From the NCBI GenBank assembly GCA_964637955.1, contig CAZWXQ010000006.1, forward strand, positions 26,926 through 90,925: a stretch of 64,000 nt of DNA, written 5' to 3'. The notes beneath the pieces are model-generated. The model saw nothing but the letters and a program-made list of their open reading frames with translations. It made no database searches and was not told the DNA's origin. Each line of letters opens with the position of its first letter. Position 1 is the stretch's first letter. The DNA comes from an uncultured Gammaproteobacteria bacterium (lineage in GTDB: Bacteria; Patescibacteriota; Microgenomatia; Levybacterales; UBA12049). This document shows, piece by piece, positions 3,001 through 37,906 of the stretch. A program made the translations under genes and the position numbers.

Positions 3001-5109
3001 GCCGTAGCCTCTGTTTCCGGAAAAACATCTTTCGCAGCTCTAGTAGTGAATAACTCAGGAACAGGTGACTTAATAGCAGCTTCTACTGGAGGGCAAACTA
3101 GATTTAAGATCACAAACAATGGAAGCGTAATGCTTGGAGGAGATTTTATAGCAGCAAGTAATACTGCAAAGTTAACTAATAATGGAAGTCCAGCAACTAT
3201 TAACGCCCTAGGTGATCAAAACAGCTTAGTTCCAAATGCTTCATTTGAAGTAGCAACAGGTTCTGGAGCGATATCAAATGATTTTGAATTTGCTGCAGGA
3301 TGGGTAGTTTCAGCTACAACTTCGGGTACAGTAAGAGTTGATAATAGCACATCTTCTCATGGAGACAGATCTATAAAAGTTCAATTTACAAATAATAGGT
3401 CTGCGATTTATTCTGCCTGTTTCCCTGTAAATGCAGTAGATACAAATGATGGATATAATATTAATTACAACTATAGATATACAGCAGCTCCAGTGCCAAC
3501 AGTAAGAATGGGACTAAGTTATTATAATTCTAAGGCGAATTGTAATAATAATACATCAGCTCTTCATACAGCTCCTTTCAGTACAGCAGCTTTAGGAGCA
3601 GCAAGCGCAAACTGGCAACAAGTTGCAGGGGCAGCTGTAACTTTAACTGCACAAAATGCAAGATGGGCAAGAGTAAATATTTTTGTAGCATGTACCACTA
3701 ACTGTACAAATGCAACCATCTGGCTTGATGCAGTAAGAGTTTCAATGCAGAGTTTGACTGCTTCTGGTCTTGATTTGGCTGAAAATTATACAGGTGACCC
3801 AGAGAATCTTGCTGAGCCTGGAGATGTAGTTAAGCTAGTAAAACGCGACGGAAAATCCATAGTTGTTCCTGCGGATAGTGTTTATGGGAAAGATGTAATC
3901 GGAGTTGTTACCACTAAACCTGGGCTTGTACTTGATGACGAGATGGATTCTCCAAAAGTGCCCGTTGTTCTTGCTGGAAGAATTCCTGTTAAAGTATCTA
4001 CAGTAAATGGAAAAATTAAAGTTGGAGATAAGTTGACCTCGTCAAGTATTCCAGGAGTGGCTATAAAAGCTATTAAATCTGGTCAAATTATTGGAACTGC
4101 GATGGAGGATTATGATAGTGATGAGATTGGTCAGATCGTAGTTCATTTCAGTCTTCAAAATAACTCAGGTAGCATTAGTGATTCATTTGAGAATGTTTCA
4201 CTTGAATCAAATTCGTTTGGAGAAGAAGTATTAAATGAATTAAAAAATCAGGAAAATCAAGGATTGTCAGGGTCTGAAATCGTAACAGATAGGTTGATTG
4301 CTTCAGTTGAGATCGTAACTCCAAAATTAACTGTAGATACACTTCATGCTAAGAAAATAATTGTTGATGAGATAGAAGGCTTAACTTCTATAAACAGTAG
4401 ATTAGCTGATCTTGAGGCAAAAGTGGCCACCATGAGCGCTACACAGTCTTCAGATAGTACGCTTAATGTGTCCGTAGAGTACGCAACGATTAGTTCTCAA
4501 TTATCTGAGAATAACATAAAACTTGAGCAGCAGAATAAGCTCATGCAGATGATAAGTGAACAGCTTGCTAGTTCATCAGCTAATACAACTTCAAGCTCAT
4601 TAGTAGCTATTGAAACACCAACATTTACTGATAATTTAAGAATTAAGGGGAATGCTCTTATTGAGGGAGTAGTAAATGTAGTTGATTCAATTATCACAAA
4701 TAACATCATAGTTAACGGTTTAGCGACTTTCTTCGGAGACGTAATTTTTAAATCAAATGCAACATTCGAAGGTCCAGTTACATTCAGTTCTGATATGGGT
4801 GGATCTGTAGTTATTGAAAAAGAAAAAGATAAAGCAGAGATTAAGTTTAATAAAGAATTTGAAGAATTGCCACTTCTCAATGCTTCGGTTTCATTTGAAG
4901 AGCAGAAGGACGAGGAAGGAAATGTTATTCCATCCGATGAATTACAGAAGGATTACTTTAAAGAAAAATACGAATACATAATCGTAAATAAGTCTAAGAA
5001 AGGTTTTGACATTGTTCTAAATAAAAAAGCTTTGACTGACCTCACATTTACTTGGACAGCTATAAGAGTGAAAGATCCGATAAATATTCAAAGCAGAAAA
5101 CCAGATTGA
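1..5109 (+). CDS. Giant Gly/Ser/Thr-rich repetitive cell-surface protein (5' partial; frame is open back to window start)
   Basis: ORF 46..5109. Frame-1 translation of nt 1-45 (RANTANNGGTIPVASVAGATS) matches the internal repeat consensus, so the gene continues upstream. Contains ~5 copies of a ~45-aa module (SVSGTTSFASLVVNNSGVGDLFAASKSGATKF...) and poly-Gly stretches. C-terminal part contains a conserved domain shared with 31054..35490. Confidence 0.75.
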   Translation, partial: RANTANNGGTIPVASVAGATSFASLVVNNSGVGDIFAASKSGATKFVIKNDGTIGFGDANYTSCDTLSTDSSALLSCGVAGSSVGDTLLAVYVISSHAGLNLTVNFSGAANSAPASSSGTITFPSNASKMTVEARAGGGGGGGTGGATAIKNAGGGGEGGYSREFLSSLSSTYYVKVGGGGNGGAAGGINAGAQGTSTCFGTNASDACSGAMINTAGGLGGAGINSAVTAAGGNGGSATGGDLNIQGQSGFASAAVATSNFSGAGGGAGGGRQVTVAGADGNSGSSGGGGSGAGGITSAATTRAGGRGGDGYIVFYIYKSGDQSLAGWNQFASGVLAPDILTTDVLIGGNSTESAKFGFLNVAGGIPTASISAGIGNFATYLTGDGTLSTTNNSTLTLGGGATGNVQINPLGGALFSIGTSNPLASIDLRYSSGTNRGGITAVASVSGTTSFASLVVNNSGVGDLFAASKSGATKFAVNNNGNLQFAGTTNSLSTIASAATASRTWTLPDATGTVCLTTTCAAGINLLQLNSNVISQNNNTYDVMFGGTATATAKFAFIGNAGSATPIASISATTASSGNGNGLVFDSGSSSIQSLRRNTLTVGGNTTGSIQFSAGGNSTLFIKANGDIGAGTNNIDPRSSFDIRSNTGNSGGTISVASVSGTTSFAALLIDQRGAGDIFTASTAGVPRFSITNAGGFKIGELQGSLGECLKSGGAGASLSWGACGGSGAAGTWTLNSLNGTHTPINNTADLLIGGISTSSALFKVTGLSSALSNLSVGIGSMTSPTGLLNVEGAYTGKALAIFNQLGNQDIFTASTSGTPRFALGANGEIKVGSGGNLSSGISGQCLISAGNGATVNWGGCASGAGAGWWTLQSAQGTVYPVNATLDMLVGGTSTSAAKFAFTGSAGSANPIASFSATTVSNGNGNGLSFDSSNSTIQSLRRNSLTIGGNTTGSIQFIAGGNSTLFLKANGDIGTGTNNNDPKASFDIRSNTANGGGTVAVASVSGKTSFAALVVNNSGTGDLIAASTGGQTRFKITNNGSVMLGGDFIAASNTAKLTNNGSPATINALGDQNSLVPNASFEVATGSGAISNDFEFAAGWVVSATTSGTVRVDNSTSSHGDRSIKVQFTNNRSAIYSACFPVNAVDTNDGYNINYNYRYTAAPVPTVRMGLSYYNSKANCNNNTSALHTAPFSTAALGAASANWQQVAGAAVTLTAQNARWARVNIFVACTTNCTNATIWLDAVRVSMQSLTASGLDLAENYTGDPENLAEPGDVVKLVKRDGKSIVVPADSVYGKDVIGVVTTKPGLVLDDEMDSPKVPVVLAGRIPVKVSTVNGKIKVGDKLTSSSIPGVAIKAIKSGQIIGTAMEDYDSDEIGQIVVHFSLQNNSGSISDSFENVSLESNSFGEEVLNELKNQENQGLSGSEIVTDRLIASVEIVTPKLTVDTLHAKKIIVDEIEGLTSINSRLADLEAKVATMSATQSSDSTLNVSVEYATISSQLSENNIKLEQQNKLMQMISEQLASSSANTTSSSLVAIETPTFTDNLRIKGNALIEGVVNVVDSIITNNIIVNGLATFFGDVIFKSNATFEGPVTFSSDMGGSVVIEKEKDKAEIKFNKEFEELPLLNASVSFEEQKDEEGNVIPSDELQKDYFKEKYEYIIVNKSKKGFDIVLNKKALTDLTFTWTAIRVKDPINIQSRKPD
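1620..3010 (+). repeat. Internal tandem duplication inside giant CDS (period ~1035 nt / 345 aa)
   Basis: nt ~1660-1770 (AKFAFIGNAGSATPIASISATTASSGNGNGLVFDSG) recurs at ~2695-2810 (AKFAFTGSAGSANPIASFSATTVSNGNGNGLSFDSS). The following ~100 aa also repeat, with conserved Cys pairs (CLKSGGAGASLSWGACGG / CLISAGNGATVNWGGCASG). Confidence 0.6.
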
Positions 5110-5189: not shown

Positions 5190-5740
5190 ACAAGATTAGA
5201 GATTACAGAAACTAAATTAATTTTTAAATAACAATCACTAATCTATTATTCAAAAATTCATAAAGGAAAAGGAAATACAGAATTAAATCTGTATAGGAAA
5301 ACTAAAGAGATACTGATTAGGATCAAGATTAGAGATTACAGTTCTTAAATTTAATTTTGATATTTTAAATCACTAATCTAAATCTGAAATCAGTATAAGG
5401 CAAAAATATTGCTCATGGGGTTAAGGGGAGATCAGAGGAGCAAAGCACTGATTTAGCTTCGCTAAACCAGTATAAGAAAAACTAGAACTCTTCGCTTTAG
5501 GCGAATCGTTAAGTTTTTCTAAAAACAATAGGTCAGAGATAAGAGATTAGAGATCACAGTTTAGAAATTTTTAACATTACAATCACTAATCTCTTATCAA
5601 GATCTTGAAAATTATAAAGACCTACAGGGTTAATGTAGATCAGAAGTGGGCGCTACTGATTTAACTAAGTTAAATCAGTATAAGAAGCTCTAGAACTCGT
5701 CGCCTTAGGCGACTCGTTAAGAGGCTTCTAAAGAAAGGAG
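5190..5740. repeat. Intergenic tandem hairpin repeats (3 copies of AGATTAGAGATTACAG...AATCACTAATCT; 2 copies of a ~210-bp unit)
   Basis: Inverted-repeat hairpins at 5193-5244, 5326-5379 and 5536-5598 (the last with a 13-bp perfect stem GATAAGAGATTAG/CTAATCTCTTATC). A second submotif (C/T)CAGTATAAGAA..CTAGAACTC.TCGC.TTAGGCGA.TCGTTAAG occurs at 5467-5513 and 5675-5721, each with a GTCGCC-TTAGG-CGAC hairpin. Confidence 0.6.
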
Positions 5741-9602: not shown

Positions 9603-9646
9603 CAGCTAACATGAAGATATAATTCTTTCTTTAAGCTCGCCCAGTT

Positions 9647-9807
9647 TTGTAGACTCAAAAAGGATACAAGCACATAATCCCGCATATTTGTAGACTCAAA
9701 AAGGATACAAGCACCTGCCCAATGCTTGTATCCTATTTCAATCAAAATATGCGGGGTCTGCCTCCCGTATTAAACGGGACTTCGCAAGCTTGTATCCTAT
9801 TTCAATC
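9647..9807. repeat. MITE-like repeat cluster: two direct 27-bp copies and two inverted 20-bp copies of one motif
   Basis: TTGTAGACTCAAAAAGGATACAAGCAC at 9647-9673 and 9688-9714. Inverted variant GCTTGTATCCTATTTCAATC at 9724-9743 and 9788-9807. Internal CCCGCATAT/ATATGCGGG and CCCGT-ATTAA-ACGGG hairpins. Confidence 0.5.
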
Positions 9808-10480: not shown

Positions 10481-11254
10481 TTAACTTTGCTTGATAATTG
10501 GGGTGAAGAGGGTGCGAAGTGAAGGCTTATATTCGTAATTAGCAGTTGATTCGAATAAAACCTTAATAAAAGAAAGCTTTTTATCGAACCTTACCATTTT
10601 CTTTTTTTGACTACCTATATCACGTATTCTAATGAGAGTGTCATTAAGGTTGCCAAGTTCCTTATACATTCCAATTTTTACAAAAACTTGAGAAAGAACA
10701 AATGGGTAAGCAGTGTCCTTATTGAACTTAATTAAGTCTTTTGGTAGCCTTGTTTTAGCTATCATCGCAGTCTCAAATTTGAATGTTTCTCCTGTGATCA
10801 AATGCTTATAGATATCATCAAATAGCAGTGGGTAATTTGAACTCCCTATTTTACGATTTTTATCATTCACAAGAGTCGTTTGACAACCAACTGCGCCTGC
10901 TTTTAGGTTTGTTTCAAGGAATTTTACCTGCTTTGCAAGTCTAGTTCTGTCTGCGATGTTTGTTGCATCCATGAGAGCTAGGTATGATCCTTTTGAAAGA
11001 CGTACTGCGCGGTTTAGGGTGCTTGCGAGGCCATATCTCTGAAGGTTATTATAAATTCTAAGTCTTTTGTCAATCTTCTTATATTTTCGAAGAATTTTGA
11101 GGCTATTATCTCCAAGATAGTCAACTACAGCTACAATTTCAAAATTTTGGTAAGTTTGATTGCTAAGGCTATTTAGGCAGGCCTCAAGATATGCCTCTGA
11201 TTTATAAACAGGCAATATGACAGATATTAATGGTTTTGGGTTTGCTTTTATCAT
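10481..11254 (-). CDS. Family 2 glycosyltransferase
   Basis: ISVILPVYKSEAYLEACLNSLSNQTYQNFEIVAVVDYLGDNS is a GT2 N-terminal signature; DxD-like motifs present. Confidence 0.85.
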   Translation of the reverse strand: MIKANPKPLISVILPVYKSEAYLEACLNSLSNQTYQNFEIVAVVDYLGDNSLKILRKYKKIDKRLRIYNNLQRYGLASTLNRAVRLSKGSYLALMDATNIADRTRLAKQVKFLETNLKAGAVGCQTTLVNDKNRKIGSSNYPLLFDDIYKHLITGETFKFETAMIAKTRLPKDLIKFNKDTAYPFVLSQVFVKIGMYKELGNLNDTLIRIRDIGSQKKKMVRFDKKLSFIKVLFESTANYEYKPSLRTLFTPIIKQS

Positions 11255-11327: not shown

Positions 11328-14297
11328 TCAATTTTTACGACTCCTTCTTTCGTAAATATAAAGACCTAGCAGAACGATAATTGTTCCAACGCTTAGAATG
11401 TATCCTAAGTATTGTAAGTATTGGGGTAGGTAGACGATTATAGTTGAATTTGGATTTGTAGATTTTGGATCATAAATCCAACCATTTGCCCAGTTATTTA
11501 CTAAAATATGATTATCAAGCTTTTTTCCGAAGATTACTGGAAACTGTTTTTTTAGCTTGTTATTTGATTTAACTTCATATGCTCTCCATCCTGAATCGAA
11601 GCTTTGATAATAAGTTAGAATTCGAGAATCTGTTTTTTTACTATTCTTGTTTATTAAAACTATTCCAGAAAGGAAGTCATATGGAACTATATTTGATTTA
11701 ATACTTTTTAATTCATTGACAGCTGTTTGATTGCCGATAGCAGTATTTTGAAAATGATATGAATATCCTGCGCCATATTCTTTCATTGGTGGTAGAAAAA
11801 GGTAATTTTTTTCAAAATTTTTATTTTTAGGCAACTTAATATCAATGTCAGCTTTTCGTGAGTCATGATTAATTACGGCAAATTGAAGCTGTCTTCCGGT
11901 AGTATTTTTACTTTCAATCTGAATTAGATATGAAGATCTTTGTGAGGCTCTATCAAGAATTATTGCATAGCAGCTTTCACTATTAAATGAAGTAAATTTG
12001 AGTGTTTTTTCATTTGTTGCTTCTTGTTTAAATATCGCATTCTTATCTTTTGGCTTTAAACAATCACCTGTTTTATGGTTTAGGAAAAATATGTCAGTGT
12101 TACTGTCATAATTATCTTGATCAATTTTATTGAATGTGATTTTAGCTTTACTGCCTATTATTTCAATGTTCGGTTGCTGGTCATAGAAATTTGGATCAAG
12201 CGGAGGAAGTAGGATGGGTGAGTTTTTAACATTCTCTGGTAAATTAGAATATAGAGAGATTGTTCTATCAGTTTCAGTTATTTCGATAGGGAATTCTAGA
12301 AGTCTTCGACTATCAAACAGTGATCTGAACAAATAGTAGTAGTCATATTCTTTGCTTTCATCTGTATAGTATTGACCTAGGTCATCAAATGCGTAATCCA
12401 CATTATTATAAGAGTAGGTAGGGCCAATATTTTTAACTTCATTTAATGAATATGTATTTCTGAAATTTTGAGGACTACTTTTAAGATTTACTTTATAAAT
12501 ATAAATATCATTCGTTTTAGGATCATTGTCGGATAATGTCTTTACAAGAGTAAATTTTTTATTTGCTTTGAGATAATTTTTAAGCTCAGTAACATATAAG
12601 AATTCATATGGATTTAAATATGGGGAAATATTATCATCGTAAATAATCCAATTGACTTGGTATTTTTCCATAATATTATCGATTTGATCAAATCTTTGAG
12701 AAAAAATAGCGTGCGTCATTTCCCAATAATAGTTTTCGTTGCCACGTCCCCAAACATCAAATGAGCGATCCATTACAGGTTGTTCGATTCCATACCATAA
12801 GAATCCAGATCCGCTATAGCCCCATTTGTAAACACTCCAGCCCCAATTCCATCCCTGTGGTAGATTGGCAATTCTTTCATTTTTATTTTGCTCTCCAAAA
12901 TATTTAAATAAATCAAAATAAATAGTTGGAATGTTAATTTTAGTTCTTGAATAAAGTAGGTTTCCTGTAAATGTTGGGATTGAAACGAAAATTAATGAAC
13001 AGAAAATTACTGCTGATGCAGCTAAGATAAGTAGTTTTTCTTTTTTGATTTTTATTTTATCTATCATTAAGCTAAGAAAAGCAGACACGCCAATTCCAAA
13101 AAGCACAGCGCAGAAAAATACAAAAGCTAATGAGAATTTAGTAAAGCTAATTCTAAACGCTTGTTTAAAAACAGGCAGATTTTGAAGAATTTCAGAGATC
13201 GAAGAGAATGGAAATGTGTTGGTTGCCAGAAATGTAAGGGAAAGTAAAAAGCCTATAAAAAAGAATGTAGAGTGTTTTGAATCACGTTTATATATAGATT
13301 TTATGCATCCAAGAAGAACAAATATAAATAGCCCAATTCCTATTAATTGAACAGGCTTTTTATTCATATGATTTTCCCAATGATCAAATACTTTAAACAC
13401 AGTTCCATCCGGAACTATGTCAATCGCTTCTGATAAAAATCCTTTAAATTGAAAAATATTATCTAGGGTTCCATATTTTTTATTTTTTTCAAGAAAATCT
13501 TCAGTCGATGAAATGTTGTTGTATGAATTTAAATAAGTTCCGCTATTTTTAAAAGTGTAATATCCAACAGGGAAGAGCCAATAAGAATTAATTAGAATAG
13601 TTATGAAAAGAATTAATATTCCAGACTTAATGCTTTTTAGATCCCTATTATTTAAGAAATCCAAAAACAAGAATATGAGTAAAAGCATTATATAAACTAG
13701 GAATATTGGTGGTATAAATCCTTGAGTAGAAGTGATTAACGTAATTAGCGCGAAGATAAATAAATATTTTTTGTTTCTATTTTCAAGATACTTAATAAGG
13801 CTAAAGAATAGCCATGGCATTGCGGCATAATGAACTATAAAAGCTTCAAGTTGAATATAAAAATTTTGAATTGTTGCATAATTTAACATATAAAAAATTC
13901 CACCAAGAAGTGCTGATGCTTCACTTATGATTTGGTTTTTATTTGAAACGAGTTTTCTAACCAAATAAAATATTCCAACAGATCCTGCTAAGAGGCAAAT
14001 AAAAGTAAAAATTGACCTAAGAAACATATCGGGAATTACGATCGACATTATGAATAGTATGATTGAGTGGGGAAGTGTTGCGCCGTATCCATGTCCACCG
14101 TAAGTTCCTACTCCCTGATTTGCTTGCCAAGTGGATGTTAAAGCTCGCGAAATATTTAGTCCGAAATTAAATTCAGGATGAAGATTATCCCAACCTGTAT
14201 ACCAAGTGGTTGAGAAATTTGTGACGAATATAGCAGCAAAGACTAAAACTAAAACCGTTAAATAGTAGTTTATTTTGGGCAATTTTAGTTTTCTCAT
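11328..14297 (-). CDS. Polytopic membrane protein, GT-C-type glycosyltransferase-like (ArnT/PMT/YfhO-like) with large C-terminal extracytoplasmic domain
   Basis: About 12 predicted TM helices in the first ~430 aa, Asp in first loop (GWDNLHPEF), long soluble C-terminal region, C-terminal TM. Start overlaps the upstream GT1 gene by 4 nt (operon). Confidence 0.5.
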   Translation of the reverse strand: MRKLKLPKINYYLTVLVLVFAAIFVTNFSTTWYTGWDNLHPEFNFGLNISRALTSTWQANQGVGTYGGHGYGATLPHSIILFIMSIVIPDMFLRSIFTFICLLAGSVGIFYLVRKLVSNKNQIISEASALLGGIFYMLNYATIQNFYIQLEAFIVHYAAMPWLFFSLIKYLENRNKKYLFIFALITLITSTQGFIPPIFLVYIMLLLIFLFLDFLNNRDLKSIKSGILILFITILINSYWLFPVGYYTFKNSGTYLNSYNNISSTEDFLEKNKKYGTLDNIFQFKGFLSEAIDIVPDGTVFKVFDHWENHMNKKPVQLIGIGLFIFVLLGCIKSIYKRDSKHSTFFFIGFLLSLTFLATNTFPFSSISEILQNLPVFKQAFRISFTKFSLAFVFFCAVLFGIGVSAFLSLMIDKIKIKKEKLLILAASAVIFCSLIFVSIPTFTGNLLYSRTKINIPTIYFDLFKYFGEQNKNERIANLPQGWNWGWSVYKWGYSGSGFLWYGIEQPVMDRSFDVWGRGNENYYWEMTHAIFSQRFDQIDNIMEKYQVNWIIYDDNISPYLNPYEFLYVTELKNYLKANKKFTLVKTLSDNDPKTNDIYIYKVNLKSSPQNFRNTYSLNEVKNIGPTYSYNNVDYAFDDLGQYYTDESKEYDYYYLFRSLFDSRRLLEFPIEITETDRTISLYSNLPENVKNSPILLPPLDPNFYDQQPNIEIIGSKAKITFNKIDQDNYDSNTDIFFLNHKTGDCLKPKDKNAIFKQEATNEKTLKFTSFNSESCYAIILDRASQRSSYLIQIESKNTTGRQLQFAVINHDSRKADIDIKLPKNKNFEKNYLFLPPMKEYGAGYSYHFQNTAIGNQTAVNELKSIKSNIVPYDFLSGIVLINKNSKKTDSRILTYYQSFDSGWRAYEVKSNNKLKKQFPVIFGKKLDNHILVNNWANGWIYDPKSTNPNSTIIVYLPQYLQYLGYILSVGTIIVLLGLYIYERRSRKN

Positions 14298-15649
14298 ATT
14301 CGGTTTTGAATTAGAGAATAGGCAGATTTAAGATTGAATGAAAACCTTGGCTTGTCATTTATTTCGAAAATATTTATATTTGCTTTTGCAATTAAATTTG
14401 TGCTGTTTCTTGTTTCACCGAGTGCAGTAGAGAAGTCAGTTAAAACTTTATTGAATGATTTTTCTTGTGATTTCAGAATTAAATTTCCAAATGACTGCGT
14501 ATTAAAATTAAAAGCTAAGTCGCTAGTTTTTAATTCAAATTTATCCATCAAAATTTCTATATCATCATTTTTAAGCATCTTAGACATTTTACTACTTAAT
14601 ATAAAAGGTTTACCATATGTTATGGTATGAGAGAAGCATCCCGAGCCTCCAATAAGTCCTCTGTAAGGGAAGACAACGAGGTCTGCAGCTTGGAAATATG
14701 TAGGGATTTCTTCTTCCGGTACAAACCCTGTTACTTTTATTCCATTATCTTTGGATGCAGTATTTAGAAGTTCTTTGTAGAATTTTTGATAATACTTTTC
14801 ATGCTTTAGAGAGTATGCTTCTCCACCTGCGATAACTAAGCGAATATTTTTATATTCTTTCTTTTCTCTTAATTTTTTAACGTTACTTATAATCCAGTCA
14901 GCACCTTTATAATAAGAAACAAAACCGAAATAAAGGATTACGAATTCATTTTCTTTTACTCCAATTTTTTCTTTTGATTCACTTACGGTTTCTTTAGTCG
15001 CGATTTTATCAAGCCAGAATCTATTTAGAACTATTTTTTCAGGATTTACATACTTGGTAAGTCTGTCATAAATAACCTCATCCATAACTACGAATTTATT
15101 TACAATTATTCCTAAACTTATATACATAGATTTTAATCCTAAGTTAAATATTTTTAATTTTAGAGATTTTTTACTTAGGCCAAAATGCTTTGCTATGAAA
15201 TCAAGATTATTTACTACATTATGCGAGAAATAGGTTATATGTTTTCGAGTTAATTTTATGAGCACCATAAATGGAAGTAAGAGTGCGAAGTTTTTAATTC
15301 CACCGTTTACGAAGAATTCAGAATGAACTTGTACATATTTTACGTTATCAAATTTAAATAACCATTTTAAAATAATAGGGAAGAGAGAAGGATGTTTTTG
15401 GTCAAAAATTCTAAGTACCAAAATTCTTCCATTTGCATAAAGCTTTGGACTGTTGTCTCCCTGGACCTTTTCAGCAAAAACTACAAAGCGTTTATTATAC
15501 TTTTTACTAATAGGTTCTATTAAAGTCTTGGTATACCACGCGATACCATAATTCTTTTCACCCTTTCTTCTCGATTCGGGATAATCAGAAATTACAATAA
15601 TAGTATCTTTATTATTAAAATCTTTGATAAATTCCATATTTATTAACAA
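14294..15649 (-). CDS. Family 1 (GT4-type) glycosyltransferase
   Basis: C-terminal RLVIAGGEAYSL...VTGFVPEEEIPTYFQAADLVVFPYRGLIGGSGCFSHTITYGKPFI matches the GT1/GT4 EX7E region. First gene of a minus-strand GT1 / GT-C / GT2 operon. Confidence 0.8.
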   Translation of the reverse strand: MLINMEFIKDFNNKDTIIVISDYPESRRKGEKNYGIAWYTKTLIEPISKKYNKRFVVFAEKVQGDNSPKLYANGRILVLRIFDQKHPSLFPIILKWLFKFDNVKYVQVHSEFFVNGGIKNFALLLPFMVLIKLTRKHITYFSHNVVNNLDFIAKHFGLSKKSLKLKIFNLGLKSMYISLGIIVNKFVVMDEVIYDRLTKYVNPEKIVLNRFWLDKIATKETVSESKEKIGVKENEFVILYFGFVSYYKGADWIISNVKKLREKKEYKNIRLVIAGGEAYSLKHEKYYQKFYKELLNTASKDNGIKVTGFVPEEEIPTYFQAADLVVFPYRGLIGGSGCFSHTITYGKPFILSSKMSKMLKNDDIEILMDKFELKTSDLAFNFNTQSFGNLILKSQEKSFNKVLTDFSTALGETRNSTNLIAKANINIFEINDKPRFSFNLKSAYSLIQNRI

Positions 15650-15976
15650 GTGCCTTTCTCTTCGATCTCCCTAAATTAGAGTGATCCAAGAGAAAGGTGA
15701 ACAGGAAGGTGGGTAGCATACAGCTACAAAGTTGCGTCGTTGGACGCAGCTCCACTAACTGGATCGCCTGTAGGTTTCTACACAATCGCCGCTAATTTTG
15801 GCAACTATGTCTATTCCTACTGGGAAACCAGCCTTTCTCAGGTATTGTGCAGAACATGCACATTCTCTGCTTGCGCAGCTAGGTCAGATACCTCCAACCT
15901 TTTCCTTACCTCCCAGAGGTAAGAGGGCGTACGCCGAACGGCGTACTCTAAACCCTCTCCCTCGGAGACGGCGTGC

Positions 15977-16837
15977 TCAGCTTTCGCGGAGCGGTCTACA
16001 GGACTGCGGAGCCCAGGCGGAAGCGACGTCGTCGCTTTTGTCTCCGTCCTGGATGTCCCAGTTCTGGGAAGTCAGCTTCGATCGCTCGGAGCTGTCCAAG
16101 TGCAGTAGCGCACCCGCAAGGCCATCGTCGTAGAGACGACCGCCGTTAGGTGCTTCAGGCACGCCGCCGTACTGGTTGACCAGCGCGGAGAACGTGTAGC
16201 ACTTGGAGGTTGGCGTCCAGCCACCCATCTTGAGGGGGAGACACCACGAGGGTGCGAAGATCGACTTGACGGTCGAGTTCGCTCCCTGGATGCCCCAGTC
16301 CTTCTTGTCGAGGATGGCCTTCTGGGCTTGGGTCACGTGGACCACGGCACCGATGATCGGCTTGTTGCCGGACTTCTTCCGGATCAGGCCGAAATCGGTG
16401 TTCAGGGCGTCCTCCTCGATGCCGAACTGGTTGTCCACCTTCTGGATGGTCAAGCAAGTCCGGGCTTTCGTTACCGAGGGGGTCCAGCCGCCGGTGGCGA
16501 GAGGGGCGCACCTGTTCGGGGTCCAAATGGAGCGTACGCGGCCTTCGCCTTGCACGAGCCATCCGGCATCCGAGAGGTCTTCTCTCTGGTCCTTGGTCAG
16601 GGAGACGACGACGCCTGCGCGCTGTCTTTTCCCGTTGTAGAGAACCCCGTTCTTCGCGGAGCCTCGCTGGACGTTGATCTGGATGCCGTAGAGGCGGTCC
16701 AGGGTGTTGAGGCTGAGGCACGAGGCCGCAGTCGCAACGTTGTCGGAACCCACGAGGGGAACCGAAGGGCTGACGCCGATCAGGCCGAGGGCCATGAACA
16801 GCGCTGCTACCAGGGTGATGAGCCGCGTTCGGCGCAT
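15977..16837 (-). CDS. Secreted protein with three tandem ~85-aa Cys-containing repeats (high-GC island 1)
   Basis: Signal peptide MRRTRLITLVAALFMALGLIGV, SD AAGGAGGA before ATG. Three repeats, each ending W.P..C.PL..GGWTP. GC3-rich codon usage, sharply different from flanks. Confidence 0.7.
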   Translation of the reverse strand: MRRTRLITLVAALFMALGLIGVSPSVPLVGSDNVATAASCLSLNTLDRLYGIQINVQRGSAKNGVLYNGKRQRAGVVVSLTKDQREDLSDAGWLVQGEGRVRSIWTPNRCAPLATGGWTPSVTKARTCLTIQKVDNQFGIEEDALNTDFGLIRKKSGNKPIIGAVVHVTQAQKAILDKKDWGIQGANSTVKSIFAPSWCLPLKMGGWTPTSKCYTFSALVNQYGGVPEAPNGGRLYDDGLAGALLHLDSSERSKLTSQNWDIQDGDKSDDVASAWAPQSCRPLRES

Positions 16838-16930
16838 CGGATCCTCCTTTCGAGGAGTGGGTGGTCATAAGACCCCAACCGGAACGATCCCTCAGGACCG
16901 AAGAACGGTATTCAGGTCTAGACCGGTGGT

Positions 16931-18145
16931 CTAGGACAGCGGACGGCAGCTCTCGGGCGACCACAGCGTGACGGTCTGGCCCTTGTTGGCCGAAGCGACC
17001 GACGCAGTGTTGAGATGCATCGTCCAGCCGGGGAGTGCCGAGTACCTCTGGTTCAGCCTGAGCTGAGCGCCAGCGAGGTCGCCCTCGTTGTACTGCCAGT
17101 TGATCTTGTCCTCCGGCGTGTTCGTGAGAGCCGCGAGATCGTCGGTCGTCAGACAGACATCCTCGGGATCCTCGCTGCCGGTGGTGCCAGGATCGACTGG
17201 ATCGGGATCGGGGCCCGTGGCCGCACCGGTCATGCCGGAGTTGGCGTGGACGTTCCCGATCTCGGGCTGCACGCATGCGAAGGGCGTGCTGAGTTCGCTC
17301 CAGGAGAACCCGGACGCCCACACGGTGACTTCGCCCTTGGCGATGACGTTCGTGTACTGCGTGGAGCCCTGGCCGTCGGAATCGACGAGATGCTCATGGT
17401 AGCCCTTGAGCTTCTTCGTGATCCGGCCGGGATCGTTGGTCGTGACCACGTTGGGCCAGATGACCACGATGTTCTTGCCGTCGACCTGGAGGCCGGCGAC
17501 GTAGTTGACGTCGACGATGCGGTCGCCGTCAAGGTCAAGGGAGTCTTCCTCGGGCTGGCGAGCCTGGAACTTGACCGCGTCTGCGGTGAAGCCGGCTGCG
17601 TCGAACCACGCCTTCCAACCGTCGTTGTGGAAGTACGGGTCCAGCTCCGCGAGGAACTGCTGGTGGATCGCGAGCGCGGGTGCGCCTGCGCATTCACCGT
17701 TCGGGTTGCCGGGCTCGGGCGAGGCGTCGACGGGGCACAGGAAGATGTTCCCGTTGCTGTCGGCGTTCGCGTAGTCCGGGCACTGATCGATGCTGTTGTC
17801 CCAGCAGTCGCCGTCCCGATCGTTGTCGGTGCGAGTGCCAGGCTTGCAGCCATCGAGGATCGCGGACTTGCCGTCGTCGTCACCGAGGTTGTCGATGAAC
17901 CCGCCGGCAGCCGCCGCGAAGTTGCTCATGAGGTTCCCGCCGTGCTGCGGCAGGTTGCTCCCGTTGATCGGGACCAGCAGTGCCCCCACGATGAGAGCGC
18001 TGGTCAGGATGATGGCGAGAGCCACGGCGAGGGTCTCGAGGACCTTCGCGATGGACTTCGACCAGTTGGGGCGCGTGCGCTGCACGGGCTGCAGGTTGCC
18101 CTGCGCCATACCGGGCACGGTAGCCCAGCTTGCCTGGTTCGTCAT
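16931..18145 (-). CDS. Membrane-anchored protein with Asp-rich Ca-binding-type repeats; C-terminus shares the island-1 repeat domain
   Basis: Start chosen at internal Met (MTNQASW..., SD AGGAGA upstream) rather than ORF-track 18334. TM VLETLAVALAIILTSALIVGALLV. DNDRDGDCWDN and DLDGDRIVD motifs. C-terminal ...GWTMHLN...VTLWSPESCRPLS matches the repeats of 15977..16837. Confidence 0.6.
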   Translation of the reverse strand: MTNQASWATVPGMAQGNLQPVQRTRPNWSKSIAKVLETLAVALAIILTSALIVGALLVPINGSNLPQHGGNLMSNFAAAAGGFIDNLGDDDGKSAILDGCKPGTRTDNDRDGDCWDNSIDQCPDYANADSNGNIFLCPVDASPEPGNPNGECAGAPALAIHQQFLAELDPYFHNDGWKAWFDAAGFTADAVKFQARQPEEDSLDLDGDRIVDVNYVAGLQVDGKNIVVIWPNVVTTNDPGRITKKLKGYHEHLVDSDGQGSTQYTNVIAKGEVTVWASGFSWSELSTPFACVQPEIGNVHANSGMTGAATGPDPDPVDPGTTGSEDPEDVCLTTDDLAALTNTPEDKINWQYNEGDLAGAQLRLNQRYSALPGWTMHLNTASVASANKGQTVTLWSPESCRPLS

Positions 18146-18437
18146 GGGAGAGAGTCTCCTTGTTGTGTGCGAGTGGATGCGTCCGACTCGGTTGATGGGG
18201 TGGGTAGCCCTGGGTTTTGATTCCCTGGACACCTCCTTGGTTGGAGAGCTTCTTGACGACCTTTCTTTCGTCTGGATTGGTTGGGTTGGCCGATTGACTG
18301 GGTAGAGAGCTGAATAGACGTGATGTCCACTCATCTCTTAAGTTAAGCCCATTCGAGGCAACGATTTCTAGCACTGTTGCTAGCACGTATCGCCTGAACT
18401 TAACTCATAACTAACCCCCAGAACTCGCGCAGCATAT

Positions 18438-18550
18438 GAATTTTCAATTTAAAATTTTCAATTTTCAATGAATTTTCATTTGTTTAATTTTTAAATTTTA
18501 AACATTTGGATTTCATTTGAAATTTGAAATTAAAAATTAATAATTCTTGT
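18438..18550. repeat. AT-rich intergenic repeat family (AATTTTCAATTTTAAATTTTTAATTTTCAT...AAATTTTAAACATTTGGATTTCATT), copy 1
   Basis: Nearly identical to the copy at 36941-37045; related copies at 28285-28355, 37755-37830 and 39420-39530. Confidence 0.6.
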
Positions 18551-19245
18551 GCATGGCACAAGTTGTGGGGAATAGCTATAAAGTTAAGCTAATCAACCAA
18601 CTAAAAAATTGATAATTAGAAATTCCTGTTCACCTTGTTAACGTACTAATCTTCGCAGAAACCTTATTTTTGTAATTGCTTACAAGTAAGATCTACTCGA
18701 AGTGCAATTTATTCTTCTGTCCTTAAGGATAAAGAAGAATGTTGCAAAAATTCGCCCTGCAGAGCAGGACCTTGCTGTTTATAAAAGAGCCCGCAAATGG
18801 GCAATTTATAAAAAGCTCGCGTATTATATTACATATTATAGGCCTTTGTCAAGTTGGCTTGGTAGGGATAGGGAAGGGGTATAGTGTTATAGCAAATTTG
18901 TATAAAAAATCTGGACATATCATTAATTGTCCAATTACTATTATATATGCTATAGGACACTGTATGTTGTTTAGTTTGGTATGAAGTTTAAGCTATCAAA
19001 ACAGCTGAAAACTAGCTAAAAAGCACTCTAGCCTCAGGTCAAGGTAGAGAAAGGGAATAAGCTATTTATTTAGTTTCGATCTGAGGCTAAAAGGTGAGAT
19101 ATTAGCCTCAATCAGAAAATACGAAAAAAATACGAACGATATGACTAAATTGTGAAAATTGAGGCTGGAAGTATGTTTTGAGGCTATTTCAAGCCTGGAA
19201 TTTGGTTGCATTTAGCCTCGGCTTATTAGATACTTATAATTAGAT

Positions 19246-21405
19246 ATGGAAAAAGATAGAGTAATACTTGAGATCAAGACTTCGAGAGTAAGTGAAGAGA
19301 CGACTGAGTCTATGGTTCAATTTTTAGCTTCGCTTACTGGGCTTCGGAAGCGGTTTATGCTCATGTGGAAGCTGGGGCATCCAATTAGCCTCGAGATAGC
19401 CATGTTTAACCAGACTATTCACTTCTACGTAACATGCCCAGCTTCACTAAAGACATTTATAGAAGGCCAGCTTACAGCCGCATATCACAGATCACTTATT
19501 GTAAATACAAAAGACTATATGCCTGAGATTCTTACCAATAAATCAACACTTGCTACGGGGCAAATGAAGCTTAGTTCAAGCTATCTCTATCCACTTAAAG
19601 TCTACAGTGAATTTAAGGATGTGGACCCATTGGCTTCACTTCTTTCATCTCTTTCAAAGGCCCAACCAAATGACAGAATAGTTATTCAATATCTTTTAAA
19701 TCCTGTTGGATCGAGTTGGCATAAAAGTGGAGAACGCCAAATGAATAGAAAGACTAAAGACGCTGCTGGAGTAGAGCATGCCAATCCTCAAGCAAAAATT
19801 ATCGGAGAAAAAATTGCGTATCATGGATTTAAGACTGCTGTAAGAATAGCAGTAAATTCTTCATCCTATGAAAGAAGTAGGTCCTTGATGTATGAAGTTG
19901 CGAATAGTTTTTCTTCGTTTAATAACCCGGGAGGAAATTCTTTGTCATATAAAAAACTTTATCTTTGGCAGAAAAATAGATTTATAAAAGCGATAAACAG
20001 GAGGAGTAAAAGGTTCGCGCCCTCAACTCAGATTTTAAATATAGAAGAAATTGCGACACTTTTCCATTTTCCTACAGAACAACTTTCTAAAGTTCATTCT
20101 ATTTCATGGCATAAGGTAGTTCTTTCAGAGCCGCCTGAAAATTTACCTATTGCTGAGGGTCTCTCAGAAGAAGAGAAAGCAGATCTTAATTTCTTCGCTT
20201 CCACGGAATTTAAAAATAAACAGACTACTTTCGGAATTAAATCTAAGGACAGAAGAAGACATGTTTATATCATCGGAAAAACTGGAGCAGGAAAGTCTAC
20301 TCTCATTGCGAATATGGCTATAAATGATATGAGAAACAAAAGAGGATTTTGCATCATTGATCCGCATGGAGATTTGTGCCAGGTCTTACTAGATTACATT
20401 CCAAGCTACAGAGTAAATGACGTAATTTATTTGGATCCTGCGGATCGAGAGAGATCATTTGCGATAAATCCACTTGAAATAAGTGAGCCGCATCAAAGGG
20501 AGCTAGTAGTTTCAGGAATTGTATCGATTTTCAATAAACTTTACGGCCATTCTTGGGGTCCGAGGCTCGAATATATACTTAGAAATACCTTGATGAGTGT
20601 AATCGATATGCCGGATGCGACACTTCTTATGGTGCCTGAAATGCTTTCAAATGATGCATTCCGAGCAAAAGTGGTAGCAAATTTAACAGATCCTGTTCTA
20701 AAAAGTTTCTGGGAAAACGAATTCGCCAATTACACAGATAAACTTAAGGCAGAATCTATAATGCCAATCCAAAATAAAGTCGGGCAGTTCGTAAGTAGTA
20801 CTGTTATTCGAAATATAATTAAGAGTCCTAAGTCCACAATTGATCTTCAAAAAGTAATGGATGAAGGTAAGATTGTTTTAGTTAATTTGTCACAAGGACA
20901 GCTAGGGGAGGATAACGCAGCACTTCTTGGCGCAATGCTTATTACCAAGATTCAGTTGGCTGCTATGAATAGAGTAACTCAAAAGGAAGAGGATAGGCGA
21001 GACTTTTATCTTTATGTTGATGAGTTCCAGAACTTCGCCACGTCATCATTTGTTAAAATATTGTCCGAGGCTCGCAAGTATAGATTGAATCTTATATTGG
21101 CTAATCAATATATAGCTCAGGTGCCTGAGGATGTCAGGTCTGCGATTTTCGGAAATGCCGGAACTATGATGTCATTCCTTATCGGAGCTGAAGATGCACC
21201 TTTTATGGCGAAAGAATTTAGTGAGAGGTTTGAAGAAAAAGATCTATTGTCTCTAGGAAACTACCAGACTATCTTAAAGCTTGCAATCGATAACATAAGT
21301 CAGTCTCCATTCCTGGCTCAGACTCTGCCTTTGCCGCGATCTGTTACTCAGAATAGGGAAAAGGCGATTCGCTCTTCAAGAGAGAGGTATACGAGACCGA
21401 TATAA
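19246..21405 (+). CDS. VirD4/TraG/TraD-family-like P-loop ATPase (coupling-protein-like), cytoplasmic, with ~330-aa N-terminal domain of unknown function
   Basis: Walker A YIIGKTGAGKST, then CIIDPHGD and YLYVDEFQNF...ILANQ motifs typical of TrwB/VirD4 and DUF87/HerA-like ATPases. No N-terminal TM helices. Confidence 0.65.
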   Translation: MEKDRVILEIKTSRVSEETTESMVQFLASLTGLRKRFMLMWKLGHPISLEIAMFNQTIHFYVTCPASLKTFIEGQLTAAYHRSLIVNTKDYMPEILTNKSTLATGQMKLSSSYLYPLKVYSEFKDVDPLASLLSSLSKAQPNDRIVIQYLLNPVGSSWHKSGERQMNRKTKDAAGVEHANPQAKIIGEKIAYHGFKTAVRIAVNSSSYERSRSLMYEVANSFSSFNNPGGNSLSYKKLYLWQKNRFIKAINRRSKRFAPSTQILNIEEIATLFHFPTEQLSKVHSISWHKVVLSEPPENLPIAEGLSEEEKADLNFFASTEFKNKQTTFGIKSKDRRRHVYIIGKTGAGKSTLIANMAINDMRNKRGFCIIDPHGDLCQVLLDYIPSYRVNDVIYLDPADRERSFAINPLEISEPHQRELVVSGIVSIFNKLYGHSWGPRLEYILRNTLMSVIDMPDATLLMVPEMLSNDAFRAKVVANLTDPVLKSFWENEFANYTDKLKAESIMPIQNKVGQFVSSTVIRNIIKSPKSTIDLQKVMDEGKIVLVNLSQGQLGEDNAALLGAMLITKIQLAAMNRVTQKEEDRRDFYLYVDEFQNFATSSFVKILSEARKYRLNLILANQYIAQVPEDVRSAIFGNAGTMMSFLIGAEDAPFMAKEFSERFEEKDLLSLGNYQTILKLAIDNISQSPFLAQTLPLPRSVTQNREKAIRSSRERYTRPI

Positions 21406-27920: not shown

Positions 27921-28284
27921 TGTATTTACAATTATTGCTTTTTAAAAGTTTTTACTATATACTGCAATTGGTGCCCATGGAAACTTCATAAGTTCTCTGG
28001 GGAAAGAAAATGTTGTTCTCAGAGAATACCTCAGATACATACTATATCATCTCAAATCGAGAGTTTTTGTTTTGTTTTCAAAATAGAAACTTGTAGAAAA
28101 ATACTCGTTTTCCCAATTAATGGGATATTGCGAGGAAAGTGAGCCCAGTGCTTAGATCAAAGATCTAAGTATAAGTAACTCTAAAGCTCACTCTGTTCGC
28201 TAAAGAGTTACTAATACTAAAGTATAAGATTTTACTAATCTTTTTCTTCGAAAAAGAAAGCAAATCTAAAAAGGAGGTGAAAAA

Positions 28285-28355
28285 TTAATTTTCAATTTTA
28301 ATTTTCAATTTTCAATTAATTTTGAATTTTGAATTTTAAATTTTAAATTCGAAAA
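28285..28355. repeat. AT-rich repeat family copy 2 (AATTTTCAATTTTAATTTTCAATTTTCAATT...)
   Basis: Immediately upstream of 28357 ATG. Preceded by an AGTATAAG...hairpin...TCTAAAAAGGAGG module resembling the 5675-5745 unit. Confidence 0.5.
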
Positions 28356-36028: not shown

Positions 36029-36973
36029 TTACTTTATTCTGTTTTTTAACTTTGCAGCTCTTATAAGCCAAGTAAGTATAGTTATCAGAGAAACTGTAAC
36101 TAGTAGACCTTTTACTGGCAATGCGAAAAATACTTTTGATTCGTGTAGTAGGGGGCCATTTTCAGAAATTGCCACATTAAGATCAGCCTTATATATTCCT
36201 AGAAGAAAGTTTTCATTCCAGGCTAACTTGCCGTTTGAGTTAGCTATAATTCTGCTCGAGTTTTCTAGTATCGTGGTTGGTTCAATTTCGACATTTCCTA
36301 CAGTTTGGCCAAACATGTTTTTTATGACTAAATTTCCTTTTGAAGTAACAAAATGCTTGCTGGTATTACTTATTTCTAATTCAGCTTCAACTGGACCATT
36401 TGAAACAAATCGGGGTATGGTAAATTTGGAAATAGCTCCGGTTGATTTATCATCTGATCCAACAGTAAGAAGAAGATTTACGCCTAAGCCTGCTTTATTC
36501 AAAACTATATTTGTCTTAGCTTCGCCAGAAGCTGTTTGAGATAAGAAAATAGCTGTGAAATAATAATCTCTTTGTTCAACTTCATCAGTAACCGGGATCA
36601 TTAGCAAGAGATTTTTCCTTTGAAAAGGTGGCACTGTGAGCTCGCTTAAGGGTTTTCCCTGGTCTGATATAGTTACTTTTTCAAAGAAAGATTTATATTC
36701 TTCTGAGAGTTCTGGATCAAAATTAGGTTCTCCGCTAAAATCAGAATTAGCCTTGAATGGGCGAAGAAAGATATTGTAAGTTATATTTTGATCCGATGAA
36801 TTATAAATATTTATCGGAGCTTTCACGACAGAAGGTGAGCTTGCGCGAATCTTAATTACGCTTGGGTTTACGCTTGTGGAAAAATTTTGAGCACTAGCGT
36901 TTTGTGCAAATGTAGTTAAAAGCATAAGCGCAATTAGAAGTATAATTTTCAATTTTAAATTTTTAATTTTCAT
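36029..36973 (-). CDS. Secreted protein with C-terminal TM anchor (hypothetical)
   Basis: N-term MKIKNLKLKIILLIALMLLTTFAQNASA is a signal peptide; first 10 codons encoded by AT-rich repeat. C-term VKGLLVTVSLITILTWLIRAAKLKNRIK. Confidence 0.55.
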   Translation of the reverse strand: MKIKNLKLKIILLIALMLLTTFAQNASAQNFSTSVNPSVIKIRASSPSVVKAPINIYNSSDQNITYNIFLRPFKANSDFSGEPNFDPELSEEYKSFFEKVTISDQGKPLSELTVPPFQRKNLLLMIPVTDEVEQRDYYFTAIFLSQTASGEAKTNIVLNKAGLGVNLLLTVGSDDKSTGAISKFTIPRFVSNGPVEAELEISNTSKHFVTSKGNLVIKNMFGQTVGNVEIEPTTILENSSRIIANSNGKLAWNENFLLGIYKADLNVAISENGPLLHESKVFFALPVKGLLVTVSLITILTWLIRAAKLKNRIK

Positions 36974-37045
36974 TCAATTATTAAATTTTAAAACATTTAG
37001 ATTTCATTAATAATTTTAAATTAGTAATTTTAAATTATTATTAGC
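36941..37045. repeat. AT-rich repeat family copy 3 (overlaps start codon of 36029..36973)
   Basis: ATAATTTTCAATTTTAAATTTTTAATTTTCATTCAATTATTAAATTTTAAAACATTTAGATTTCATT matches 18438-18550. Confidence 0.6.
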
Positions 37046-37793: not shown

Positions 37794-37906
37794 TGAAATA
37801 TTAATTCAAAATTTACAAATAATAATTTTCCGTTAATTAAATCGTAGCACAAAAGTAATATAACCTGCCATGAAGTCAGTTTCGCTGCAATTTAAAGACC
37901 TATAGT

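Follow-up and report, generated by a model that had tools for sequence, protein, structure and literature searches.

A GC-rich, mosaic two-gene cassette at a conserved position beside glycosyltransferase genes in a low-GC Patescibacteria lineage

Anatomy and base composition of island 1

The stretch analysed here, referred to as the window, comprises 64,000 nucleotides (nt) of contig CAZWXQ010000006.1 (positions 26,926 to 90,925) from an ultra-small bacterium of the Patescibacteria, or Candidate Phyla Radiation (CPR), and contains at about 15.6-18.4 kb a GC-rich island, island 1, with two genes, A and B, for predicted exported proteins. Island 1 has kept a foreign-looking base composition over long evolutionary time, and known processes do not readily explain this persistence. 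From its upstream to its downstream end, the unit consists of the following features:

18431..18550, minus strand: AT-rich upstream region, GC 0.13-0.28, in which AATTTTCAATTTT-type repeats are phased; the promoter of the B-A unit probably lies here
18146..18430, minus strand: 5' leader of B, non-coding, GC 0.44-0.58, ending in the Shine-Dalgarno (SD) sequence AAGGAG
16931..18145, minus strand: gene B, an open reading frame (ORF) of 404 amino acids (aa) with a predicted N-terminal single transmembrane (TM) anchor, a Cys/Asp-rich segment, a central domain and a divergent C-terminal module
within B: central domain, helix plus beta, conserved, with the motif ARQPEE...WPNxxTT...YTNV
within B: C-terminal module, divergent, ending WSPESCRPLS
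16838..16930, minus strand: B-A spacer, GC ~0.6, with the SD sequence AAGGAGG 5 nt ahead of the A start codon
15977..16837, minus strand: gene A, 286 aa; predicted Sec-type signal peptide, then three tandem modules of ~72-77 aa with a Cys at each module end
15637..15976, minus strand: structured spacer from the A stop codon to the ATG of the adjoining family 1 glycosyltransferase (GT1) gene at 15637, GC ~0.49, opening with hairpins directly behind A and closing with a long one immediately ahead of GT1

The mean GC content of the window is 0.38, and four GC-rich islands stand out from it (15741-18400, 38221-39180, 46481-47640 and 48881-50000). At the left edge of island 1, GC rises from 0.23-0.29 at 15550-15699 to 0.48 at 15650-15749; it reaches 0.59-0.70 in the interior (~15900 to 18200) and descends at the right edge through 0.44-0.58 at 18200-18449 to 0.13-0.24 at 18400-18549 (100-nt sliding windows), in agreement with a preliminary description of this DNA that had placed the jump at ~15655 and the return at ~18420. 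The step is sharp and two-tiered, with the outer ~300 nt on each side being non-coding at GC ~0.5 and genes A and B standing at 0.64. Over its ~2.8 kb, island 1 has a mean GC of 0.622, compared with 0.361 +/- 0.055 outside the four islands, where the maximum was 0.52 (200-nt windows). The GC-rich codons described earlier for both genes correspond to a GC content at third codon positions (GC3) of 0.82 in A and 0.88 in B; by codon position, GC is 0.59/0.49/0.82 in A, 0.62/0.47/0.88 in B and 0.37/0.27/0.23 in GT1. Codon preference in A and B is reversed for every amino acid (for example, AAG 91% vs 28% and ATC 94% vs 17%). Island 1 thus displays the host-unlike composition (GC 0.62 vs 0.36) and codon usage (GC3 0.82-0.88 vs 0.23-0.33 in the neighbouring genes) that are looked for in islands acquired by horizontal gene transfer (HGT).

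Both minus-strand ORFs are real, as had been proposed, and carry canonical SD sequences, AAGGAG lying 10 nt ahead of the B ATG at 18145 and AAGGAGG 5 nt ahead of the A ATG at 16837. The B start at 18145 was preferred over a longer ORF from 18334 because of the canonical SD there, and this SD and ATG are conserved in L001, one of the related loci (L numbers; homologous proteins carry P numbers) compared below. Each protein has one N-terminal hydrophobic segment, at residues 3-31 of A, followed by ATA|AS, and at residues 29-63 of B. AlphaFold2 (AF2) predicts a TM helix at B 28-55, a confident central domain of B (predicted local distance difference test, pLDDT, 85-93) and compact modules. Judged by inspection, hydropathy and the AF2 helix, both proteins are predicted to be exported, as the initial reading had it.

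The three tandem repeats claimed for A were recovered, with per-copy E values of 1e-23 to 1e-28 against the module profile, in the correct frame only. Six Cys residues are invariant in 8 A homologues and bracket the units at C40-C110, C128-C199 and C213-C280 of the window protein, giving a module length of ~72-77 aa, Cys pair included, and a repeat period of ~85 aa with linkers. The module consensus reads C-x5-LD-x2-[YF]GI...NG-L...AGAV...T-x2-Q...L...GW-x2-QG...SAW-x-P-x2-C-x-PL. The claim that B ends in one copy of the same unit held in part: the Cys...WxPxxCRPL frame is shared, whereas a full copy was not borne out, the BLASTP comparison of A with B yielding only E = 0.005. A profile built from the A repeats alone did not detect the C-terminus of the window's B, and the B module is therefore a divergent subtype. 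Orthologous B proteins elsewhere (P0009 and those of L004, L007 and L019) carry a clear A-type module at the C-terminal position, and proteins such as P0025 combine both subtypes. Each module is an alpha/beta unit of ~72 aa whose first and last residues are predicted to be joined by a disulfide, and A and B are built from this previously undescribed unit, which constitutes a new protein module family.

Neither A nor B gave a significant profile match in Pfam-A, NCBIfam, PADLOC, PHROGs or PDB sequences, consistent with the earlier notion of a paralogous exported pair with a novel Cys-containing repeat. Among 5.8 billion proteins, 8 and 3 homologues of the island proteins were found, those of B being P0009-P0011, and a 15-sequence B alignment was made. 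An exhaustive profile search of 1.84 billion representative proteins returned 52 clusters, mostly B-like with the module in C-terminal position; a few of the weakest are spurious repeat proteins, leaving a family of ~50 clusters. Relatives of A were not found in 185,579 GTDB species representatives or in viral contigs (IMG/VR). A phage or defence origin was rejected on the basis of zero PHROGs, PADLOC or viral-contig matches. An Asp/Cys-rich motif of B, DNDRDGDCWDNSIDQCPDYANAD (residues ~100-125, window 17770-17850), resembles by eye a calcium-binding thrombospondin type-3 repeat; it is not scored by Pfam, is conserved in L001 and is replaced in other lineages.

The non-coding ends of island 1 are conserved and structured. 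The B leader is 80-88% identical to that of L001, whereas the low-GC intergenic DNA further upstream barely aligns, and it folds with z = -3.7 relative to dinucleotide shuffles. The 340-nt spacer ahead of GT1 has a minimum free energy of -144 kcal/mol (z = -8.4) and is 90-97% identical to its counterpart in L001, above the ~83% of the flanks. When five spacer sequences representing three lineages were aligned, compensatory change was seen at 15 of 91 consensus pairs, against 6.3 +/- 1.7 in column shuffles and 0-8 in slid controls. Spacers preceding GT1 are strongly structured in all 18 measurable loci (z -5.4 to -9, mononucleotide shuffles); in distant loci they consist mainly of a terminator-like hairpin and a hairpin abutting the GT1 start codon, and with nhmmer the large multi-hairpin element was found only in the closer subclade and not in the distant loci. 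Against Rfam, only two tRNAs reach the gathering score in the window and nothing meaningful appears at E <= 1 in 15500-19400. Although drawn from few independent sequences, these features suggest that the spacer most likely combines termination signals of the B-A unit with a regulatory leader of the glycosyltransferase genes, and make it a candidate for a new structured RNA ahead of the conserved glycosylation cluster.

Upstream of B, a promoter-like site, TTGAAA-17-GAAAAT, lies on the minus strand at 18468-18440 (a consensus match only). Repeat families D1, D3 and D4 of the upstream region recur at four other intergenic sites, and AT-rich phased repeats (AATTTTCAATTTTAAATTTTTAATTTTCA-like) were located at 18433-18545, 28277-28349, 36938-37036, 37754-37820 and 39414-39535, all intergenic, one copy abutting island 1. 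An inverted pair of such repeats (37760-37805 / 39488-39533, 89% complementary) flanks island 2 at a distance. The AT-rich phased repeats may represent promoter regions of bent DNA or else copies of an element dispersed among intergenic sites.

Conserved position, persistent composition and mosaic evolution

Island 1 is situated between a cluster of three glycosyltransferase genes and a divergently transcribed gene for a coupling ATPase:

14294..15636, minus strand: GT1-family glycosyltransferase (PF00534 at 1.5e-15), of native low GC; universal downstream neighbour of the B/A genes
11328..14297, minus strand: GT-C-like glycosyltransferase, 989 aa, multi-span, with a weak AftD N-terminal match (PF11847 at 1.6e-4, below the family cut-off)
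10481..11254, minus strand: GT2-family glycosyltransferase, ORF of 257 aa; third gene of the glycosylation cluster
19246..21405, plus strand: VirD4/TraG-like coupling ATPase whose N-terminal domain is DUF8128; divergent in orientation to island 1

The same order, B - A - GT1 - GT-C - GT2, with an identical A protein (100%), is present on a Logan contig from run SRR14271336. In a 443-kb contig from the Joint Genome Institute (JGI), the homologous genes (A 66% and B 59% identical) again lie between the VirD4-like gene and GT1 - GT-C - GT2, and GC is 0.60-0.67 within the island and ~0.3 outside. Six more Logan loci, on contigs from other runs, show this arrangement, with either B - A - GT1 - GT-C or VirD4 - B - A as the matching part. 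JGI metagenomes, scanned with a degenerate pattern based on the B alignment, added 20 loci with a B-like gene, which lies directly upstream of GT1 in all 14 that reach GT1, with GT-C next where the contig continues. Thus, on every fetched contig extending into GT1, B, with or without A, is directly upstream of GT1-GT-C and mostly above flank GC, and a GT2 gene follows on contigs that are long enough. No empty site or patchy presence was encountered, the position being the same in all related loci recovered (GT1 identity 39-100%). Variations on the theme include a B+A fusion followed by GT1 (L012), family members on both sides of GT1-GT-C (L014) and a family member beside a CLIPPER-domain gene (L015), which in L001 and L007 neighbours the VirD4 gene.

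Among the neighbours, the GT-C gene overlaps the GT1 stop codon and is kept beside GT1 in at least 12 loci, and the GT2 equivalents in L001, L002 and L004 carry PF00535/PF13641. The VirD4-like ATPase gene that had been reported beside the island matched PF10412 (34.1 bits, cut-off 20.5; 1.8e-8), PF12696 (26.8 bits, cut-off 22) and PF01935 (DUF87, 39.3 bits); since its NCBIfam matches all fall far below the cut-offs, it is a distant family member. It adjoins the island only in the closer subclade (L001, L007, L010, L008 and L012) and not in L003. The nearest named genome is L010 (JBBTWB010000018.1, Patescibacteria group bacterium H43-bin061_1), with a VirD4-like gene 79% identical to the window's. 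Beside that gene, positions 1000-3900 of L010 hold a different GC-rich island (0.51-0.64) with two other signal-peptide proteins, which have no Pfam match and no A/B module; GT1 and GT-C are absent from the contig. The site beside the VirD4-like gene may be a hot spot for GC-rich secreted-protein genes. Another VirD4-like gene with 79% identity is on L009 (CAZSXQ010000036.1), a 7-kb contig labelled 'uncultured Gammaproteobacteria bacterium' whose first 250 nt have a GC of 0.54; it is probably a mis-binned Patescibacteria contig ending inside an equivalent island.

The GC-rich state recurs across lineages separated by considerable divergence. Between loci, flanking genes diverge to 40-65% amino-acid identity, and even where GT1 identity to the window falls to 42-66%, GC3 of B/A is 0.69-0.88, compared with 0.19-0.37 in GT1/GT-C. 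Between the window and L004, the proportion of synonymous differences (pS) is 0.53-0.57 in the island and 0.75-0.83 in the flanks. The saturation value, that is, the synonymous difference expected if codons were fully randomised under the codon usage of each compartment, is 0.68 for the island and 1.02 for the flanks. Island and flanks have therefore both gone ~75-80% of the way to saturation and share the same relative synonymous age, without convergence of GC3, which is 0.82-0.88 for A/B in the window, 0.72-0.83 in L004 and 0.23-0.37 in the flanks. Neutral decay toward the genome equilibrium would have erased most of this difference.

The degree of enrichment differs between lineages, with GC3 of B-like genes at the same locus forming a continuum from 0.23 to 0.88. 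There is no excess over the flank in L028/29 (0.33 vs 0.34) and L033 (0.23 vs 0.29), a moderate one in L019 (0.47 vs 0.34) and L021 (0.60 vs 0.28), and an extreme one in the window (0.88 vs 0.24). Given this continuum at one position, the family looks native to the locus, and the GC enrichment looks lineage-specific and maintained. It extends beyond codons, the non-coding leader, spacer and trailer being GC-rich as well. Expression-linked codon optimisation was rejected, as ribosomal-protein genes on L003 have a GC3 of only 0.29-0.42.

The proteins of island 1 evolve fast. Between the window and L001, amino-acid identity is 88-95% in the flanks and 66-67% in A/B. The corresponding nonsynonymous divergence (dN) is 0.04-0.07 in the flanks, with a synonymous divergence (dS) of 0.8-1.3 and dN/dS of 0.03-0.09, as opposed to a dN of 0.26-0.27 and dN/dS of 0.49-0.58 in A/B. 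Hypermutation was rejected, since outside recombination blocks the island's dS is not elevated: dS of B between the close pair L004/L008 (0.21) matches that of the flanks (0.15-0.18). At the DNA level, the island is a mosaic: relative to L001 and to flanks at ~83%, blocks of 88-96% identity (17276-17872, 18173-18369 and 15690-15988) occur together with blocks of 43-51% (16886-17182, the B C-terminal module; 17873-18072, the B N-terminal region; and 16089-16185, the third module of A). Between L004 and L008, blocks of 70-73% identity with sharp edges lie inside the island, while the flanks are ~96% identical. Such sharp-edged divergent blocks at a fixed position between conserved flanks are what is seen in replacement islands. 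The identities of modules 1/2/3 of the A homologues are incongruent (P0001/P0002, 74/71/49%; P0002/P0004, 67/87/96%; P0002/P0003, 80/64/47%), and the subtype of the B C-terminal module differs between the window and L001. The mosaicism is recombinational exchange of sub-genic cassettes, whole modules included, between lineages, on top of relaxed or diversifying selection. A diversity-generating retroelement (DGR) was rejected as a source of variation, with no template/variable repeat pair involving 15650-18420 and no reverse transcriptase in the 64 kb.

In three near-identical contigs from different runs (L004, L005 and L006), 13 of 22 differences fall within 360 nt in the 5' part of GT1 (positions 2654-3012), all of them in L005, and the cluster looks like a recent recombination tract reaching from the island side into GT1.

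Other islands of the window and explanations for the GC-rich state

The three other GC-rich islands (38221-39300, 46481-47640 and 48881-50000; GC 0.53-0.57) are located between housekeeping genes, including those for leucyl-tRNA synthetase (LeuRS), a ComEC-like lactamase-fold protein and arginyl-tRNA synthetase (ArgRS), and contain one ORF each, with GC3 of 0.73-0.83:

38286-38729, plus strand: ORF of island 2
46632-47123, plus strand: ORF of island 3
49035-49910, minus strand: ORF of island 4, the only one of the three with an N-terminal hydrophobic anchor

None of these ORFs has a Pfam, NCBIfam, PADLOC or PHROGs match, and neither shared borders nor a common sequence was found among the four islands. 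A search of 5.8 billion proteins for homologues of the island 4 protein returned only the protein itself, although its gene, with unchanged neighbours, was assembled again from a second run, SRR14271332. Downstream of the island 2 ORF, ~550 nt (38730-39290) are GC-rich and contain no ORF of at least 80 aa; a further structured RNA is conceivable here, as is a gene that is short or has decayed. Elsewhere in the window, a 1687-aa ORF at 46-5109, of somewhat elevated GC (0.40-0.47), with four diverged ~128-nt repeats (22-149, 1312-1439, 1954-2081 and 2989-3116) probably encodes a large repetitive surface protein. Two intergenic pairs of direct repeats, 5429-5513 / 5637-5721 (85 nt, 78% identity, 208 nt apart, with hairpin-like segments) and 9637-9673 / 9678-9714 (37 nt, 89% identity, in tandem), may both be small RNAs or regulatory sites.

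With somewhat better than even confidence, we regard island 1 as a hypervariable, recombining surface-protein cassette beside an envelope glycosylation cluster, long resident and GC-rich by fixation bias. It would have been vertically inherited, while recombining, within a Patescibacteria lineage rather than recently imported, and would form its own transcription unit, in which B and A come after an AT-rich promoter region and a structured GC-rich leader and are themselves followed by trailing hairpins. B would be membrane-anchored, with a conserved ectodomain and one C-terminal module, and A secreted, with three modules. The features that suggest a surface structure, all read from sequence, are the signal peptide or TM anchor, the conserved Cys pairs and the neighbouring GT1/GT-C/GT2 genes. 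Because the cassette is always directly upstream of the GT1/GT-C/GT2 cluster, A and B are likely to be cell-surface components displayed on, or working with, the glycan layer made by these enzymes, and may themselves be glycosylated. Diversification would proceed largely through homologous recombination swapping sub-genic blocks and whole modules between lineages, a pattern expected of surface structures on which phages, or the host cells of these epibionts, exert diversifying selection. As for the composition, we infer that a G/C fixation bias holds the island GC-rich, in which case GC3 of about 0.8-0.9 in a genome at about 0.25 would be a stationary state. GC-biased gene conversion at a recombination hot spot would be the most likely cause, the alternative being selection on the DNA or RNA of the unit.

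Several points weigh against this interpretation. The link of A and B to the glycosyltransferase cluster is one of gene adjacency only, and the strong hairpins between A and GT1 suggest separate transcripts. An overall dN/dS below 1 falls short of proving positive selection. Synonymous substitutions polarised with outgroups comprise 9 strong-to-weak (S>W), 1 W>S and 5 S>S changes, too few to test for a fixation bias; they lean, if anything, to decay, the direction in which parsimony is biased at GC-rich sites. To our knowledge, GC-biased gene conversion on this scale (GC3 +0.6, with edges of a few tens of bases) is undescribed in bacteria. Finally, the same 64 kb contains three further GC-rich ORFan islands that are unrelated, one of which has no homologue at all even in the data of the sister genome; imports from a GC-rich pool not yet sampled would account for this more easily.

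These further islands also invite a broader and, at present, tentative proposal, which we consider plausible at somewhat less than even odds, namely a two-compartment genome in which a local fixation bias holds small loci at GC3 of about 0.8 while the rest drifts to about 0.25. This 64 kb would contain four such loci, whose products would be fast-evolving proteins, for the most part exported or lineage-specific. Either selection on transcripts or GC-biased gene conversion at hot spots of recombination would supply the bias.

Less probable, and in our view rather unlikely, is recurrent allelic replacement, in which the locus is old and its alleles are repeatedly overwritten from an unsampled higher-GC relative or element. 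Recent cross-lineage exchange does take place, as some blocks shared by the window and L001 are 95-96% identical against flanks at ~83%, and divergent blocks have been imported into the 96% identical background of L004 and L008. Likewise consistent with this scenario are the presence of the family in the somewhat higher-GC genome of L014 (flank GC3 0.45-0.48), the different GC-rich secreted-protein genes at the same site in L010 and the several unrelated GC-rich islands of this one genome; because the three others are unrelated ORFan islands, a model of re-import stays alive. However, none of about 35 loci has GC-rich flanks, only about 50 clusters exist in 1.84 billion representatives, every examined context is low-GC, and the non-coding ends of the island are conserved in line with the species tree.

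We attach a still smaller probability to the idea that selection acts on the unit's DNA or RNA itself and keeps GC high, independent of recombination. Candidate targets are mRNA stability or structure, slow translation through rare codons that aids export and disulfide folding, and escape from AT-directed binding or cleavage. GC is high throughout the transcription unit, including leader, spacer and trailer; its codon choice mirrors that of the genome, so that its codons are rare ones for this cell; the products are predicted exported proteins needing disulfides; and the degree of enrichment is lineage-specific, all of which would fit. By contrast, islands 2 and 3 share the codon bias without an evident export signal, some lineages manage with low-GC B-like genes, and we know of no small-genome bacterium with an AT-biased background in which selection has been strong enough to hold GC3 at 0.88.

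The preliminary description had read island 1 as recently acquired foreign DNA or a chimeric join, and neither proposal withstood the comparison. That the DNA arrived recently from a donor of high GC, for instance an actinobacterial host, and still shows the undecayed composition of that donor, appears highly improbable. In its favour are a codon usage typical of a high-GC organism, the sharp composition boundaries and the presence of three other GC-rich ORFan islands, of which the island 4 protein matches nothing but itself among 5.8 billion. The locus is nevertheless syntenic across species with flanks near synonymous saturation, the relative synonymous divergence of the island is equal to theirs, and low-GC family members occupy the same locus. 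No donor of matching composition was detected: no homologue was found in a high-GC genomic context, every context examined being a lower-GC Patescibacteria-type contig, and neither GTDB species representatives nor viral contigs gave a match. Signatures of mobility were sought with the same outcome, with no integrase, tRNA or flanking direct or inverted repeats bracketing 15650-18420 and the nearest tRNAs at 25702 and 59776. An assembly chimera, in which a high-GC fragment of another organism was joined into a low-GC contig, has a negligible chance of being true, as only the composition step itself speaks for it, whereas the junctions are identical in an independent Logan assembly and homologous, though diverged, in the JGI 443-kb contig and many assemblies from different samples, and the conserved structured spacer runs unbroken from the island into the GT1 start codon.

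Relation to known systems and significance

Flexible surface islands, among them O-antigen or capsule loci, are read under a constant-diversity or phage-predation model; they are usually larger, have their gene content replaced wholesale and show a GC content typically below that of the genome. A documented case of such flexible ('replacement' or metagenomic) cell-surface islands is the cell-wall-associated island of Haloquadratum walsbyi (PMC4535781). Island 1 resembles them in its fixed position, conserved flanks, atypical composition and predicted exported or surface proteins beside glycosyltransferases, as well as in the very high divergence between close relatives brought about by recombinational allele replacement. 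It differs in that one orthologous two-gene cassette persists, modules are swapped at the sub-genic level, and GC3 is stable at 0.6 above that of the genome.

Classical horizontally acquired genomic islands ameliorate toward their host, as formulated in the Lawrence and Ochman model. The sharp compositional discontinuity and foreign-looking codon usage are shared with these, whereas island 1 lacks mobility genes, tRNA and att-like repeats, occurs in synteny among relatives instead of patchily, has no detected donor and shows no amelioration despite near-saturated synonymous divergence. Lassalle et al. reportedly described in 2015, in PLoS Genet, GC-biased gene conversion in recombining bacterial genes, amounting to a few percent of GC3 in many genes. 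Similarly, the raised GC3 of island 1 coincides with a locus of clear recombination tracts; unlike in those cases, the increase is 60 GC3 points in a 2.8-kb unit with sharp borders.

DGR targets are common in CPR genomes and, like island 1, combine a fast-evolving C-terminal region with a predicted exported protein, but the variation described here arises by block exchange and not by adenine-specific substitution. A hypervariable surface gene of a CPR bacterium is that of a Gracilibacterium, which contains a 9-mer (PTD) repeat array in a genome of 28.9% GC, with no compositional island described (Sieber et al. 2019, PMC6851277). Both cases concern one locus of a CPR bacterium and an extracellular protein, here a predicted one, under pressure to diversify, whereas the protein family and the mechanism are different. 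A literature search on GC-rich islands in CPR/Patescibacteria returned nothing relevant.

What is new is a stable, extreme and inverted base composition in what is probably a hypervariable surface-gene island. In textbooks, an atypical GC content signals recent gene transfer, and DNA of this kind should drift toward the composition of its host. Island 1, however, keeps a 60-point GC3 excess while its synonymous turnover about equals that of its neighbours; being foreign-looking and yet old, it is a locus that composition alone misdates. If a fixation bias is indeed responsible, the island would provide an unusually clean bacterial case for setting biased gene conversion against selection on synonymous sites. 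Should the genome prove to be divided into two compartments, island 1 would be the first case with demonstrable stationarity, its orthologues being traceable across species. For the bacterium itself, an uncultivated epibiont, the cassette is a candidate component of a variable outer face that may serve in host attachment or phage evasion.

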